Of a stretch of 32,000 nt of DNA, positions 5,991 through 11,696 are shown in pieces; positions within the stretch are counted from its first letter, which is position 1; every line of letters begins with the position of its first letter. The notes under the pieces are model-generated. The model was not told the DNA's origin. It searched no databases and worked only from the letters and a program-made list of their open reading frames with translations. Both the position numbers and the translations under genes were made by a program. This DNA comes from Candidatus Baldrarchaeota archaeon (GTDB taxonomy: Archaea; Asgardarchaeota; Baldrarchaeia; Baldrarchaeales; DXJG01). The stretch is from positions 60,001 to 92,000 of the forward strand of contig DXJG01000001.1 in NCBI GenBank assembly GCA_019056805.1, given 5' to 3'.

Positions 5991-6159
5991 GCCGGGGTAG
6001 CCTAGCCAGGCTAATGGCTTTATTTAAGCCGGCTAAGGCGGCAGGTACATGTACCCGCTAGGGCCTCGAGATCCAATTTTATCGGGGCTGGGTTATTCTA
6101 CACGAGATAGCCGCTGGCCCTTACGGGCCGCGTGGGTTCAAATCCCACCCCCGGCGCCA
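5991..6159 (+). tRNA. tRNA-Ser(CGA) with three introns (6015-6036 at 22/23, 6043-6061 at 28/29, 6071-6108 at 37/38)
   Basis: Spliced product GCCGGGG TA GCCT AGCCAGGCTA AGGC G GCGGC CTCGAGA GCCGC TGGCCCTTACGGGCCGC GTGGG TTCAAAT CCCAC CCCCGGC G CCA folds into a full cloverleaf with long variable arm and encoded CCA; each intron has BHB-like 4-bp helix and 3-nt bulge geometry. Confidence 0.9.
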
Positions 6160-6200: not shown

Positions 6201-7061
6201 ATGGAGCAAGATTTGGATGAAATGGTTCAGAAGATTCGTAGCGAATTTGGAGTTATAGGAAGAGACCGCGAGTTACGTAAAGCATTAGCCGCAAAACTCG
6301 CTGGGAAACATTTACTTCTTGAAGGTGAAGTTGGTGTTGGAAAAACCACCATTGCCTTGGCTTTGGCCAAATTTTTTAACCAACCTTTCTATAGAATTGA
6401 TGGGGATGATAGATTCACAGAATCGAAACTTGTAGGCCACTGGGAACCTCCTCTAGTCATAGAGTTTGGTTACGATGCTGAGAGGAGTTTTGTGCCGGGA
6501 CCTTTAGTTAGAGCTATGCTGGAGGGTGGAGTTCTCTTCATTAATGAATTAAATCGTTTACCTGAATCTACTCAGAACGTTTTACTTCCTGCTATGGATG
6601 AAGGTCAAATTATCGTTCCTAAACTCGGTATTATTAAAGCTAAACCTCAATTCTATATTATAGCCACACAGAATCCTGAAGAACATGTTGGTGTAACTTC
6701 CTTAAGTGAAGCGCTACGTGACCGTTTTGTTTGGATTAAACTGGATTATCAAAGTGAGGAAGAAGAGAAAGAAATTACTGCTCTACACTCAAACTGTAAC
6801 GATTCAAAAATAATCGATTTGGCTGTCAAAATTTGTAGATTAACAAGAAAACATCCAGATATTAGGCGCGGTGCATCTGTGAGAGGAGCAATAGATCTTG
6901 CAAGCCTGGTTTCTAAACTTAATTCTCATAGTGTAGATGAATGGGTTGATGCAGCAATAATGGCTCTTGGAACAAAAATAGAGTTAGAAGATGATACCAA
7001 CAAATCCGTTGAGAGAATAATACGAGAAATAGTGGTCTCGGTTTTTCAAAATTTTCAATAG
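6201..7061 (+). CDS. MoxR-family AAA+ ATPase
   Basis: Walker A LLLEGEVGVGKTT, Walker B variant LFINELNR, IIATQNP, ALRDRF and GASVRG motifs. Confidence 0.93.
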   Translation: MEQDLDEMVQKIRSEFGVIGRDRELRKALAAKLAGKHLLLEGEVGVGKTTIALALAKFFNQPFYRIDGDDRFTESKLVGHWEPPLVIEFGYDAERSFVPGPLVRAMLEGGVLFINELNRLPESTQNVLLPAMDEGQIIVPKLGIIKAKPQFYIIATQNPEEHVGVTSLSEALRDRFVWIKLDYQSEEEEKEITALHSNCNDSKIIDLAVKICRLTRKHPDIRRGASVRGAIDLASLVSKLNSHSVDEWVDAAIMALGTKIELEDDTNKSVERIIREIVVSVFQNFQ

Positions 7062-8134
7062 TTGAGGGAATTCAAGAAAGAATTCCCGATGACCAAAGTC
7101 CAATTATACTTACTGATAAGACAAGTGAAGAAAAAATTTTAGAGAAAGAAATTGAGGTTGGAGGGAAATTACCAGAATATTATCGTCGTTTAGCTAGGGG
7201 ACTTGACTATATTTCTGTAAGAAGATTAGCTGAAGTTGCTATTAAAAAATACAATATTTCAGCACTTTTAGGACTGGCAAAGACTAATCAATATGCTGTC
7301 GTAAATGCCCTAGTTAATTTAAAGAACTTGGAGATCTTAGCAAGAAAAGCTGCTAAGAACCCTGAAATGGGATACGCGCTCTTCTTCTTAATAAGGAGAA
7401 ATATTCCAAAAAAATATTGCCGTTTATTCCTAAATTTTCTTAAAGTTTCTATACTTAAAAGTGCATTAGGAAAACATGTTAATTTTTCACCTGGACCCTT
7501 TAAGAGGAAAGTAGAATACCAGTCAGGTTTAGATGATTTTGATCTTGATGAAACTCTGGAGAAATTTTTAGAACAACGATATTTAACCTATAATGATGTT
7601 GTTGGAATCGAACGTGAGGAAAGAAGGAAGGCAGGAGTTTTAATTCTTGATACCAGTGGATCTATGTATGGAGAGAAAATAGTGGCAGCTGCATTAGCTA
7701 CAGCAACGATTGCGTATCACATGAGAAACGTAGAACATTCGATAATCGTTTTTAACACAAAAGCAACAATAATTAAGAAAATTACCGAAAGAAAACCCAC
7801 CACAAGAGTGGTAGAGGAAATTCTAGAAACGGAAGCCGCAGGATTTACAAACATAGAAGACGCAATGAAAAAAGCCTTAAAAGAACTTAAAAAAAGTAAA
7901 ATAAAAGAAAAGTGGGCTATATTAATGACCGACGGCCTTTACAACAGAGGTAAGGATCCGAGAAAACTAGCATATCTTTTCCCTAAGCTTCATGTAATTG
8001 CTTTGCCAACTCAACAGCCCATAGGCACAAAAATATGTAAACAAATAGCAAACTTAGGTCATGGAAAATTCGCACAAATAAAAGAAATACAGCAAATACC
8101 TAAAGCATTGGTAAAAATATTAAAAAGAATATAA
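7055..8134 (+). CDS. von Willebrand factor A domain protein (MoxR partner); frame open from 7013, probably reached by -1 frameshift from moxR
   Basis: MIDAS motif DTSGS...T(GFTNI)...TDG is intact. The frame has no stop from 7013 to 8134 and no ATG/GTG/TTG before 7328 (the ORF-track start); 7058-7327 reads as plausible protein (IVEGIQERIPDDQSP...LPEYYRRLARGLDY...). Confidence 0.85.
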   Translation, partial: SIVEGIQERIPDDQSPIILTDKTSEEKILEKEIEVGGKLPEYYRRLARGLDYISVRRLAEVAIKKYNISALLGLAKTNQYAVVNALVNLKNLEILARKAAKNPEMGYALFFLIRRNIPKKYCRLFLNFLKVSILKSALGKHVNFSPGPFKRKVEYQSGLDDFDLDETLEKFLEQRYLTYNDVVGIEREERRKAGVLILDTSGSMYGEKIVAAALATATIAYHMRNVEHSIIVFNTKATIIKKITERKPTTRVVEEILETEAAGFTNIEDAMKKALKELKKSKIKEKWAILMTDGLYNRGKDPRKLAYLFPKLHVIALPTQQPIGTKICKQIANLGHGKFAQIKEIQQIPKALVKILKRI

Positions 8135-8168: not shown

Positions 8169-8316
8169 GCGGGGGTGGCCGAGACCGTTACAAACGGTGG
8201 AAACCAGGTCAAAGCCGCATGTGTTCGGCGACAAAAGGCGACGGGCCCAGGAGCTACAGTGCGGAGAAACCCGTTGGCGTAGGCCTGCGTGGGTTCAAAT
8301 CCCACCCCCCGCACCA
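8169..8316 (+). tRNA. tRNA-Leu(CAG) with three introns (8184-8203 at 15/16, 8213-8235 at 21/22, 8252-8268 at 37/38)
   Basis: Spliced product GCGGGGG TG GCCG AGCCAGGTCAA AGGC G ACGGG CCCAGGA CCCGT TGGCGTAGGCCTGC GTGGG TTCAAAT CCCAC CCCCCGC A CCA has Leu-type acceptor, D and variable arms; intron hairpins CCGTT/AACGG and GCCG/CGGC with 3-nt bulges. Position 33 reads C. Confidence 0.87.
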
Positions 8317-9973: not shown

Positions 9974-11377
9974 TTAACTTTCAATATTAGATTTTATTTT
10001 TTCTTCTAAAATTTCTACGTTTTTTAATATTTCTTGATAATATTTTTCAGTTATTATTCCTTTCTTGTAAGCTTCCTCCAGCTCTTCTTTGTCCACTACT
10101 TTTACGTCGTTGTTTGGCCATTTTACGATGTCTATTGCAAGATCAATATAGGTTACTTTTTGTGGGTGAATTTCTATTCCAGTTGAGATATTGTAGTATT
10201 CTCCTTTGAGTTCTCTTTCTTCATTGTAATAACTTGTTTTCATGTACCAGGATCCTTGAGTAATTTCTGTTATACCGTAATCTCCTTCCTCTATAGGTAT
10301 GTTTAATGCGTCGTAGGTTCCTCCACCTCTGAACTTTCTTATAAGTTTTAATGTAAGTGGGTTGGTTGTTTTTTCTATAATTTTTCCAGGTGTTAAGTGT
10401 AATCGTTTTCCGTTAAGTTTAATATGTTCTATTTCGATTATTTCTCCTACTTTAGGGTATTTTTGAAGAACAGTTTCTCTAACTTGTTCTGTAACTTCCT
10501 TTTTCATATCGGGGTTTTTTGATATTATTTTTTCAGCTAGATCTACAACTAAGGCAAAATTCGAACTCAATGATTTGTAGAAGTGGTGATTTGGTATTGT
10601 TGGAGTTACTTTGCTTCTAATTTCATCCAATGTTCTTTTTGTTTCGTACGGTATTTTTATATGAGCTATTCTTTCTCCTTCATAGAGAAGTATGGGGGCT
10701 TTTTCTTTTTCTGCTCTTTTTAATATTTCTTCTGCCTTTTTTTCTAGTTGTTTTACCTCTTCTATTAATTCTTTTGGTTCTCTGGTTGCTGCAGCTGTTC
10801 TCCAAAGTATACCCCAATTCTTAGGTTTTATTGCTTTACCTAAAACAAATAACATTTGTCTAGTATCTGAATTTTTTATTTTCCTACTTATTTTTATTGA
10901 GTTTTCAGGAATAAGAATTGCATATTTACCTGGTATCGTTATGTTTGTAGTTAGCGTGATATCTTTCCTTAATCCAGGATCAACCACCCTAACGAGGATT
11001 TCTTTTCCTTCTTCTAACTTTTCACCTACAAGAATACCGTCGTCTTTCCCTAATTTTACAATACTTCCATGAAATGTTTGTTGTTCAACAATGCCTTTGT
11101 ATATTGCATTGGCTGTAACTTTTGATACATAAATAATGGGGTTTGGCAATTCTTCACTAATTACGTCTAGAAATGCATTTAGGTGTTCGTTTTTTGCTTC
11201 TACAATTATTCCTTGCTTATCTGCAGTATCTTTTATATCTATGTCTGGGGTATCTATGTCGGGATTGATATTTAATCTCTCTCTGATTATCTGTGTGCTT
11301 TGAGTTATATGAAATCCGTGGTCGAGTAGTAGTTTTGTTAGGGCTGTTGAGTAAATACCTCTGACTCTAACTTTCAA
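9974..11377 (-). CDS. fau-1: Probable ribonuclease FAU-1 (RNA-binding protein AU-1, C-terminal DUF402)
   Basis: N-terminal KVRVRGIYSTALT, S1-like region, C-terminal YYNISTGIE...YIDLAIDIV. TTG at 11377 with GGAG upstream preferred to 11521, which would overlap the UPF0147 gene. Confidence 0.9.
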   Translation of the reverse strand: MKVRVRGIYSTALTKLLLDHGFHITQSTQIIRERLNINPDIDTPDIDIKDTADKQGIIVEAKNEHLNAFLDVISEELPNPIIYVSKVTANAIYKGIVEQQTFHGSIVKLGKDDGILVGEKLEEGKEILVRVVDPGLRKDITLTTNITIPGKYAILIPENSIKISRKIKNSDTRQMLFVLGKAIKPKNWGILWRTAAATREPKELIEEVKQLEKKAEEILKRAEKEKAPILLYEGERIAHIKIPYETKRTLDEIRSKVTPTIPNHHFYKSLSSNFALVVDLAEKIISKNPDMKKEVTEQVRETVLQKYPKVGEIIEIEHIKLNGKRLHLTPGKIIEKTTNPLTLKLIRKFRGGGTYDALNIPIEEGDYGITEITQGSWYMKTSYYNEERELKGEYYNISTGIEIHPQKVTYIDLAIDIVKWPNNDVKVVDKEELEEAYKKGIITEKYYQEILKNVEILEEKIKSNIES

Positions 11378-11432
11378 ATCCGAACTCTCCTGGCTAATAA
11401 ATAAGTAAAATATAGATGCATGTAGTTGTGAG

Positions 11433-11696
11433 TTAGTCTTGTATTGTTTCCAGTATGCTGACTGCATTCCATATTTTTGTCCTTGCGTGTAACGGGCAGT
11501 TTGGATCTTGCGAGGCTTCATCTAATATCGATATGGCATTTGCCGCTCTCACGGCTGGAGTTCCTTCTCCTCCATGTAGTGTTTCTATGGCTTCATTTGC
11601 TGCTCTTCTTATATTTCTTGGTACTGATGTATCCTCCGCAATTTGTTTAAGAATTTGTGTTGCTTGTTCTATTTTTTCCTTTGTTTCTTTTTTCAC
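11433..11696 (-). CDS. UPF0147 family protein
   Basis: [12 protein letters not shown]...[24 protein letters not shown] signature. Confidence 0.93.

Follow-up and report, generated by a model that had tools for sequence, protein, structure and literature searches.

We analyzed a stretch of 32,000 nucleotides (nt) from Candidatus Baldrarchaeota archaeon (hereafter the window; GCA_019056805.1, contig DXJG01000001.1, positions 60,001-92,000, forward strand), in which a gene for a MoxR-type AAA+ ATPase is overlapped by a reading frame for a VWA-domain protein. Our main finding is that moxR and the VWA frame are probably a single recoded gene, the second half of which would be reached by a programmed -1 frameshift, and that this arrangement extends throughout the Asgard phylum. 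The proposal draws on the anatomy of the locus, its conservation, covariation within a downstream RNA element, and homologues in which both halves are fused in one frame.

The window belongs to a metagenome-assembled genome (MAG) of 18 contigs (1.9 Mb, 91% complete, 35% GC). Our comparative set comprises 106 loci that carry both genes, drawn from genomes related to that of the window and from GTDB species genomes. Their taxon labels are Promethearchaeota/Lokiarchaeia, Hod-, Hermod-, Odin-, Thor-, and Heimdallarchaeota, Sifarchaeum, Borrarchaeum, Harpocratesius, Lokiarchaeum ossiferum, and Promethearchaeum, in addition to three Hadarchaeota MAGs. The VWA frame is the -1 frame relative to moxR in 103 of the 106 loci, and these 103 form 22 clusters at 70% identity and 63 at 90%.

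Anatomy of the moxR-VWA locus

The features of the locus in the window are listed below with the basis for each.

6201..7061, + strand: zero-frame open reading frame (ORF) for a MoxR-type AAA+ ATPase (CbbQ/NorQ/GvpN-like) of 286 amino acids (aa), with the TAG stop at 7059-7061 (Pfam AAA_5 and AAA_3).
7010..7012, + strand: TGA that closes the -1 frame upstream (ORF reading).
7049..7055, + strand: candidate slippery heptamer A_AAT_TTT, phased on the AAT and TTT codons; its conserved core is T_TTT, the Phe285 codon with the T before it.
7056..7063, + strand: spacer of 8 nt that holds the zero-frame stop (8 nt followed by GA in 83 of 103 loci).
7064..7092, + strand: putative kink-turn (k-turn) stem-loop (motif pattern, covariance model, and folding), with GA (G2n A1n) at 7064-7065, the canonical (C) helix formed by 7066-7073 with 7080-7087, the loop at 7074-7079, the bulge GAU at 7088-7090, GA (G1b A2b) at 7091-7092, and C at position 3b (7093).
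7055..7117, + strand: start of the post-shift -1 frame, encoding a 21-aa acidic disordered linker (SIVEGIQERIPDDQSPIILTD); the predicted local distance difference test score (pLDDT) is < 50 for residues 1-35 of the frame product.
7118..7468, + strand: helical bundle, residues 36-152 of the VWA-frame product P0001, kept in stand-alone and fused homologues (AlphaFold).
7328..7330, + strand: first canonical start, TTG, at residue 106 inside the helical bundle (ORF reading, AlphaFold).
7544..8134, + strand: VWA domain with the metal ion-dependent adhesion site (MIDAS) motif DTSGS at 7649-7663 and the stop at 8132-8134 (Pfam, AlphaFold, and fold match).

The moxR ORF ends in ...V F Q N F Q TAG. Because the TGA at 7010-7012 shuts the -1 frame, entry into the VWA frame must fall between there and 7061. 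From 7013 the -1 frame runs open to the stop at 8132-8134, and the earliest ATG, GTG, or TTG in it is the TTG at 7328. The initial annotation had described the same open and initially startless -1 frame, an in-phase heptamer at 7049-7055, and a perfect hairpin of 8 base pairs (bp) at 7066-7087, and a renewed reading of the sequence gives each of these. Its arithmetic also stands: a shift at the Phe codon predicts a fusion of 285 + 359 = 644 aa, with the junction ...VFQNF|SIVEGIQER.

Conservation of the -1 phase and the putative slip site

All 103 loci in the -1 phase have a T followed by a Phe codon, mostly TTT and rarely TTC, 0-2 codons ahead of the moxR stop. The codon ahead of Phe is GAT, AAT, CAT, CCT, or CTT, and thus ends in T in 22 of 22 clusters; from the codon usage of each locus, the chance of a T before Phe in all 22 is ~1e-4, to be read as a guide. 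The heptamers are GGATTTT in 56 loci, AAATTTT in 19, AGATTTT in 15, and AAATTTC in 3, with a few others. Among these, GGAUUUU is an experimentally proven -1 slip site in pea enation mosaic virus (PEMV), where re-pairing is complete for tRNA-Phe in the A site but poor for tRNA-Asp in the P site (PMC4737148). The heptamer that the initial annotation expected to be conserved is therefore kept in part: U_UUY on the Phe codon is universal, whereas the full X_XXY_YYZ form is present in the window and not in every lineage.

The -1 frame between the slip site and the VWA region is never closed in any of these loci. It opens just 13 nt ahead of the moxR stop in 32 loci and 7 nt ahead in two, and these narrow openings pin the frame change essentially to the Phe codon. 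In 62 of the 103 loci, the -1 frame lacks ATG, GTG, and TTG as far as 75 nt beyond the stop, and 12 of the 22 clusters include such loci. Where canonical starts are present, their positions vary and are not homologous, and gene callers have chosen among them arbitrarily. The annotated VWA start in P. syntrophicum MK-D1, for instance, is a TTG located 53 nt past the stop, and the -1 frame there is open through A_AAT_TTT_CAA_TAA, with a predicted trans-frame junction of ...ENF-SITAENTESLEPDEAK. Across the orthologs, then, the -1 phase, the slip site, and a covarying downstream structure are all kept, and most are neither in-frame fusions nor equipped with a VWA start of their own, as the initial annotation anticipated.

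Fused homologues and the two protein halves

Natural single-ORF AAA_5-VWA proteins of 644-647 aa are encoded in Asgard genomes, and the predicted trans-frame product has 644 aa. In one of them (L119, 644 aa), residues 9-286 align with the window MoxR (37% identity, 2e-65) and residues 347-643 align with the VWA-frame product, including its helical bundle (31% identity, 4e-40). The family to which this protein belongs comprises AAA_5 + VWA proteins of 590-680 aa from Asgard archaea and several bacterial phyla. Several Asgard genomes (L119, L120, L121; G022, G032, G018, G037) carry multiple in-frame AAA_5-VWA paralogues of 637-652 aa beside the frameshift-type pair; the N-terminal half of the L121 protein has no AAA Pfam match at the 1e-5 threshold.

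The first ORF matches Pfam AAA_5 (1.7e-28) and AAA_3 (4.6e-18) and contains the Walker A sequence GEVGVGKT. Its best single-domain relatives in the PDB are NorQ (61.7 bits) and MoxR 2r44 (55.7 bits), and it scores 92 bits against NCBIfam GvpN, which is under the cut-off. As judged by these matches, the ATPase is a MoxR protein of the CbbQ/NorQ/GvpN type. The chelatase models give 37 bits (BchD-ChlD TIGR02031, cut-off 500) and 42 bits (TIGR02442, cut-off 779), and the match to Pfam Mg_chelatase is restricted to residues 23-58. A search of the window genome (91% complete) for the CobN/ChlH large subunit (PF02514) found none. Because the ATPase is of the MoxR type and no CobN/ChlH was found, the moxR-VWA family falls outside chlD. 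We also rejected an identity as a 'mini-midasin': the score of ~159 bits is the sum of six midasin AAA domains, the best single one of which gives 43 bits, less than the 62 of NorQ.

The second frame matches Pfam VWA_2, VWA, and VWA_CoxE, and both protein identities in the initial annotation hold. Its homologues in databases are stand-alone entries named 'VWA domain-containing protein' of 296-384 aa from Asgard archaea, and the MIDAS residues D213, S215, S217, T279, and D307 are invariant across 63 homologues. Modeled with AlphaFold, the whole open frame (mean pLDDT 80) has disorder at residues 1-35, a confident helical bundle at 36-152, and the VWA domain at 178-373, in keeping with the earlier description of the startless segment as an acidic linker followed by helical sequence. 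In fold comparison, the VWA domain matches NorD of NorQD complexes, among other generic VWA domains. Because the TTG at 7328 lies in the middle of the modeled bundle, it is unlikely to mark the true N-terminus.

A structured RNA element downstream of the slip site

The hairpin in the window is a perfect 8-bp stem with a 6-nt loop that begins 10 nt after the heptamer. Its folding energy is -13.4 kcal/mol (z = -4.8), a value reached by 0 of 200 shuffled sequences. A lone heptamer followed by a hairpin is weak evidence at 35% GC, and it is the comparative data that point to more than chance. In what we call the hairpin type, found in the window genus and many other clusters, the order is Phe codon, 8 nt, GA, stem-loop, and GAU-GA. 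The stem sequences vary by cluster (GGGAATTC, GGAGAT, AGGGGACTG, GGAGGTT, GGCTC, GGGGG, GAGGACAT, and others), and the length of the hairpin insert is always a multiple of three (18, 21, 24, or 27 nt).

The 8-nt spacer before GA is found alike with the stop at an offset of 3, 6, or 9. Because this spacer is constant while the stop moves, the element is positioned by the slip site and not by the stop. The initial annotation placed the hairpin 10 nt downstream and judged the spacer slightly long. The distance to the stem is indeed 10 nt in the window, but the GA pairs lie at 8 nt and the outer helix of the minimum free energy (MFE) fold at 5 nt. The structured k-turn-like element thus begins 5-8 nt past the slip site, or 6-8 nt with the GA pairs counted, a distance typical of -1 stimulators.

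A second architecture, the Loki type, is found in the largest cluster, where the block GGATTTTCAATAATCGATGATTTCTC is nearly invariant in nucleotides, third codon positions included. There, GAU-GA directly follows the 8-nt spacer and precedes a helix (consensus UUUCUCU with AGAGAUU) that ends in the second GA; the G-A after this GA can pair with the U-C ahead of the bulge. This register, model B, is backed by compensatory changes in 7 pairs of the helix; it outscores every slid register, and 0 of 500 shuffles equaled it. A competing model A (C helix UAAUC/GAUUG) was rejected, as it fits only the majority consensus and fails in variants without GAUUG. In a third variety (L. ossiferum, L076, L104, L105, and L063/L077), GA is moved by 3 nt and Watson-Crick pairs lie outside the GA dinucleotides, as in AGGCU-GA-GGAU...AUCC-AAG-GA-AGCC; these pairs would constitute a paired noncanonical (NC) helix of a k-turn.

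Under a strict definition of the k-turn-like pattern (GA, then ≥ 4 bp of stem, then 3 nt and a closing GA, located at slip+8 or slip+11), 16 of 22 clusters have it against 0.15 expected from the background rate in the same loci, a comparison that tests the pattern and not the three-dimensional fold. We also built a covariance model (R1) from 11 sequences outside the window genus. Its sole match in the 1.9-Mb genome is at 7049-7098 (E = 7e-5). On the model alignment of the hairpin type, 5 of 5 stem pairs are changed on both sides, 97% of cells are paired, and 0 of 500 shuffles are as good; this alignment is fitted to the model and therefore leans towards structure.

Not all lineages carry the element in full. 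Junctions of the Promethearchaeum type (L107, L122) keep GGCU...GAU-GA-AGCC, and a good C helix was looked for there and not found. In Baldrarchaeia from the order of the window genome (L005-L007 and L012, the nearest other family), A_AAT_TTT_TGA is kept with a TTG overlapping the stop, and neither a downstream hairpin nor a GAUGA motif was seen. The stimulator was therefore either lost in these genomes or gained in the window genus.

The three Hadarchaeota-labelled MAGs (L101, L106, L116) carry the whole cassette in GC-rich form, including the slip site, 8 nt, GA, a G5/C5 stem, and GAUGAC. This finding suggests either transfer between phyla or mislabelled bins.

A possible k-turn and a possible role for L7Ae

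A Watson-Crick helix joined to a 3-nt bulge and tandem G:A/A:G pairs is the pattern of a k-turn, and from its sequence the element appears to be a putative example. The L7Ae k-turns in archaeal l7ae leaders have a GAU bulge and tandem G:A pairs, occur in either polarity with the terminal loop on either helix, and have a Shine-Dalgarno (SD) sequence nearby (PMC6298567). Among moxR-VWA loci both k-turn polarities are likewise represented, matching known L7Ae sites (PMC6298567).

It is possible that the frameshift is real and that the hairpin is a plain stem-loop, with its flanks kept as linker codons for Glu and Asp-Asp/Glu and with no k-turn or role for L7Ae. The flanks are in-frame acidic codons, RNAfold gives an ordinary outer helix (GUUG with UGAC) and not sheared pairs, and the NC helix is weak in the window genus. 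However, the bulge switches among GAU (Asp), AAU (Asn), AAG (Lys), and GAG (Glu), thereby spanning chemically different residues, and the GA that follows never changes. The first Asp codon is always GAU, even in the GC-rich Hadarchaeota, where T-ending codons amount to 38%, and hairpin-type loci mostly have a C directly behind the second GA despite the AT-rich genus. The varying bulge, the GAU in GC-rich genomes, and the following C argue for a constraint on the flanks at the RNA level in addition to their coding for Glu/Asp. Furthermore, L076, L104, and L108 add a Watson-Crick NC helix exactly at the place that a k-turn requires, and the occurrence of both polarities also speaks for a k-turn over a plain stem-loop.

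Two L7Ae-family proteins are encoded in the window genome, and from the motif we infer that L7Ae may bind the moxR-VWA element. In the genome's own l7ae leader (L117:1410-1452, contig C10), CCGAUGAG precedes a ribosome binding site (GGAGGGAGG) and the ATG by ~25 nt. The leader has a GAU-GA string that matches the published l7ae-leader k-turns; a convincing k-turn helix pair was looked for in the same leader and none could be drawn. We offer, as a tentative speculation that we do not favor strongly, that the stimulator k-turn might work only, or much better, with L7Ae bound, in which case the ratio of MoxR to MoxR-VWA would follow the pool of free L7Ae. If true, cellular genes of archaea would have a -1 frameshift switch that depends on a protein and is kept throughout the Asgard phylum, and the element would be the first natural k-turn to serve as a recoding signal. 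We found no literature linking k-turns or L7Ae to frameshifting.

The GAUGA string also contains an ATG in the moxR frame (7089, opening the segment 7089-7142 of the window) that is conserved in nearly all loci, and its conservation is probably a by-product of the RNA motif. As a VWA start in frame 0 it was rejected, because the short ORF behind it lacks conservation, running to 17 codons in the window but to 6 in L004 and 3-5 in L013/L017/L018.

Alternative explanations

The VWA product could instead be a separate protein whose translation restarts near the moxR stop, on ATA, ATC, or ATT or on an occasional TTG or ATG, with the k-turn acting as an L7Ae-controlled operator. We consider this explanation unlikely, even though it accounts for the ancestral-looking TTGA overlap in Baldrarchaeia and draws on other observations. 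An ATA at 7058-7060 overlaps the stop in the window, an ATC follows the stop in the Loki type, and some clusters have a TTG or ATG at the junction. Moreover, an SD-like GGAGG occurs in the 5' arm of many hairpins, L7Ae k-turns by ribosome binding sites are known translational switches (PMC6298567), and stand-alone VWA proteins of 296-384 aa are annotated in databases. However, no near-cognate codon is conserved: the ATA becomes GTA in L004, L008, L056, and others, and we rejected ATA 7058 as a start overlapping the stop on account of its loss in L004 and L008. Several hairpin-type loci have no AUN codon at all from the -1 opening to the hairpin. The distance of the structure is fixed to the Phe codon and not to the stop, the universal T before Phe is not required by restart, and the annotated starts fall at differing, non-homologous positions.

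The remaining explanations place the frame break outside translation. If the T5/A4/T4 runs held an indel from assembly or sequencing, or if the locus were a decaying pseudogene, the true gene would be fused in frame or consist of two ordinary genes; we give this next to no probability. Homopolymer runs do occupy 7042-7055, and the genome is a MAG in 18 contigs. However, a search for an indel over 7040-7078 in Logan contigs from four runs in four studies, two of which may be the source sample, found an identical sequence with zero differences and zero gaps, as the initial annotation would predict. Three further same-genus assemblies (L002/L003, L004, and L008, at 81-93% protein identity) have the same moxR stop position, -1 phase, heptamer, and stem, while the stop changes from TAG to TAA and the loops read AAGAAA, AAAAAA, CTTT, or AGAA (inside a 9-bp stem). 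About 100 loci of other families share this frame structure. Because independent contigs and related assemblies agree, assembly error is excluded as the source of the frame break, and the synonymous changes that dominate the VWA frame from ~7125 onward speak against a pseudogene. Highly improbable as well is a correction of the frame in RNA, whether the hairpin is spliced out as a bulge-helix-bulge (BHB) micro-intron or the T run causes slippage during transcription. Compared with Loki-type loci, the hairpin does form a discrete insert, but the inserts are multiples of three and their removal cannot repair a -1 phase; moreover, loci without a hairpin share that phase, and the element has a single 3-nt bulge where a BHB has two that enclose a 4-bp helix. 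With lengths of 4-5, the T runs are below those named for transcriptional realignment (A > 7, T > 8; PMC3711429). A second shift at the A6 run at 7131-7136 was also rejected, as the VWA-frame homology and the synonymous pattern start upstream of it and frame 0 stops earlier in L004.

Several observations nevertheless weigh against the proposed k-turn-stimulated frameshift. In 15 loci (A_GAU_UUU), the P-site codon is unable to re-pair, and a classical tandem slip therefore does not fit every case. TTT_TGA forms a TTG at the junction in L005, L013, L020, and L023, and an ATG occurs at +2 in L020 and at +26 in L010, so that independent or coupled initiation is possible in those lineages. No k-turn-like element was seen in Baldrarchaeia (L005), L023, L011/L016, or L102, and these may use ordinary coupling instead. 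Watson-Crick pairs are absent from the NC side of the putative k-turn in the window genus, and just two pairs of the Loki-type C helix are conserved. Because the GA and GAU-GA flanks double as codons for Glu and Asp-Asp/Glu in the linker, selection on the protein could account for part of their conservation. Finally, the loci and clusters are akin to one another and are not independent samples, which makes the cluster-based chance figures only a guide.

Proposed mechanism and comparison with known systems

For a programmed frameshift, we envision that most ribosomes would end at the TAG at 7059 to yield the 286-aa MoxR-type ATPase, and that some would slip by -1 with tRNA-Phe on the UUU at 7053-7055. 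In the window, a tandem slip on A_AAU_UUU would be possible with tRNA-Asn on A_AAU. The shifted ribosomes would read the -1 frame to 8131 and produce 644 aa that comprise the ATPase, the 21-aa acidic linker, the helical bundle, and the VWA/MIDAS domain. The stem-loop with the k-turn signature would promote the slip, probably as a roadblock at the mRNA entrance, and it may bind L7Ae. By analogy with NorQD, CbbQO, and dnaX, the long form would supply one VWA-bearing subunit to a ring of short ATPases. Asgard archaea presumably need both products, given how widely they keep the cassette, and the likely reason is that one VWA-bearing subunit joins an otherwise plain ATPase ring. The hetero-hexamer with a tethered VWA domain envisaged in the initial annotation would be such an assembly.

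The closest precedent is found in the fs-chlD 'magnesium chelatase' genes, which undergo a -1 shift on poly-A with an efficiency of 10-63% in E. coli reporters and for which fused homologues exist (Antonov et al. 2013; PMC3711429). Archaeal examples are known from Methanocaldococcus and Methanococcus (PMC3711429, PMC5009743), and later work on these genes has been presented (Kuznetsov et al. 2022; PMC9227772), with some fs-chlD carriers having no large chelatase subunit. These genes share several traits with the arrangement proposed here: slipping by -1 where an AAA+ ORF ends generates a short ATPase alongside a long form extended by a linker and a VWA domain, the annotation splits the gene into two neighbors, in-frame fusions occur among the homologues, and archaea are among the carriers. 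However, the fs-chlD slip site is poly-A (A_AAA_AAR, A7-A11) and the ATPase is of the ChlI/ChlD type, whereas the moxR-VWA loci have U_UUY on a Phe codon, a CbbQ/NorQ/GvpN-type MoxR, and a candidate stimulator with a k-turn signature. We found no mention of Asgard archaea in the fs-chlD literature (PMC3711429, PMC9227772, PMC5009743, and one supplement), and no literature on frameshifting in Asgard cellular genes. A 2016 review lists few archaeal -1 cases, namely virus tail genes, the methanogen 'magnesium chelatase', and open Sulfolobus cases (PMC5009743). The suggestion in the initial annotation of an undescribed archaeal recoding system is thus correct for the family, the signal, and the phylum, whereas archaeal frameshift-coupled genes for an AAA protein and an AAA-plus-domain protein had been published (PMC3711429, PMC5009743). 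In other words, the logic of frameshift-coupled AAA+/VWA production is known, and the MoxR-VWA family, its signal, and its presence in Asgard archaea are new.

Other systems share parts of this design. In E. coli dnaX (tau/gamma), a -1 shift determines in what proportion two AAA+ subunits with a common N-terminal ATPase enter one ring-like complex, and the signal likewise combines a slippery heptamer with a 3' hairpin. However, the shifted dnaX product is the short one, the signal is A_AAA_AAG with an upstream SD, and the protein is from another family. NorQ/NorD and CbbQ/CbbO also pair a MoxR AAA+ hexamer with a VWA adaptor encoded by an adjacent gene, and the window ATPase is nearest to NorQ while the VWA fold matches NorD. 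Those partners are translated separately, in contrast to the product predicted here, and no nor or cbb genes were seen within the window. The k-turns of l7ae 5' leaders (Daume 2017, PMC5539422; Huang, Ashraf and Lilley 2019, PMC6298567) resemble the element in having a terminal loop on either helix and an SD-like sequence nearby. They lie in 5' leaders and switch off initiation, whereas the element described here is located in a coding overlap just 3' of the slip site and its binding by L7Ae is a prediction. Finally, PEMV2 and umbraviruses use the same GGAUUUU heptamer as 56 moxR-VWA loci (PMC4737148), but in a eukaryotic viral context and with other stimulators.

The cassette is present in at least 22 clusters over most named Asgard lineages, and these include the cultured Lokiarchaeum ossiferum and Promethearchaeum syntrophicum, which makes the proposal directly testable. 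If true, it would correct hundreds of 'VWA domain-containing protein' entries with arbitrary N-termini, and it would provide a natural system for studying how archaeal ribosomes shift frame. Should the k-turn reading hold, the element would represent a new class of stimulators that respond to a protein, and L7Ae would gain a new function. The production of plain and adaptor-bearing AAA+ subunits from one message would also have arisen with a different signal in a different AAA+ subfamily.

Neighboring features

On either side of the moxR-VWA pair (5991-6159 and 8169-8316 of the window) are tRNA-like sequences with visible acceptor and T-arm ends, such as GGGTTCAAATCCCACCCC. Rfam and ARAGORN scans of the window gave zero hits, and neither program called these flanks. 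Near the pair is a gene with RNase_E_G and DUF402 domains (9974-11521, - strand), which in Baldrarchaeia (L005:540-1961) is directly upstream of moxR and co-oriented with it. Genes for PhoU-like and DUF429 proteins are further neighbors common to the window and L005 loci.

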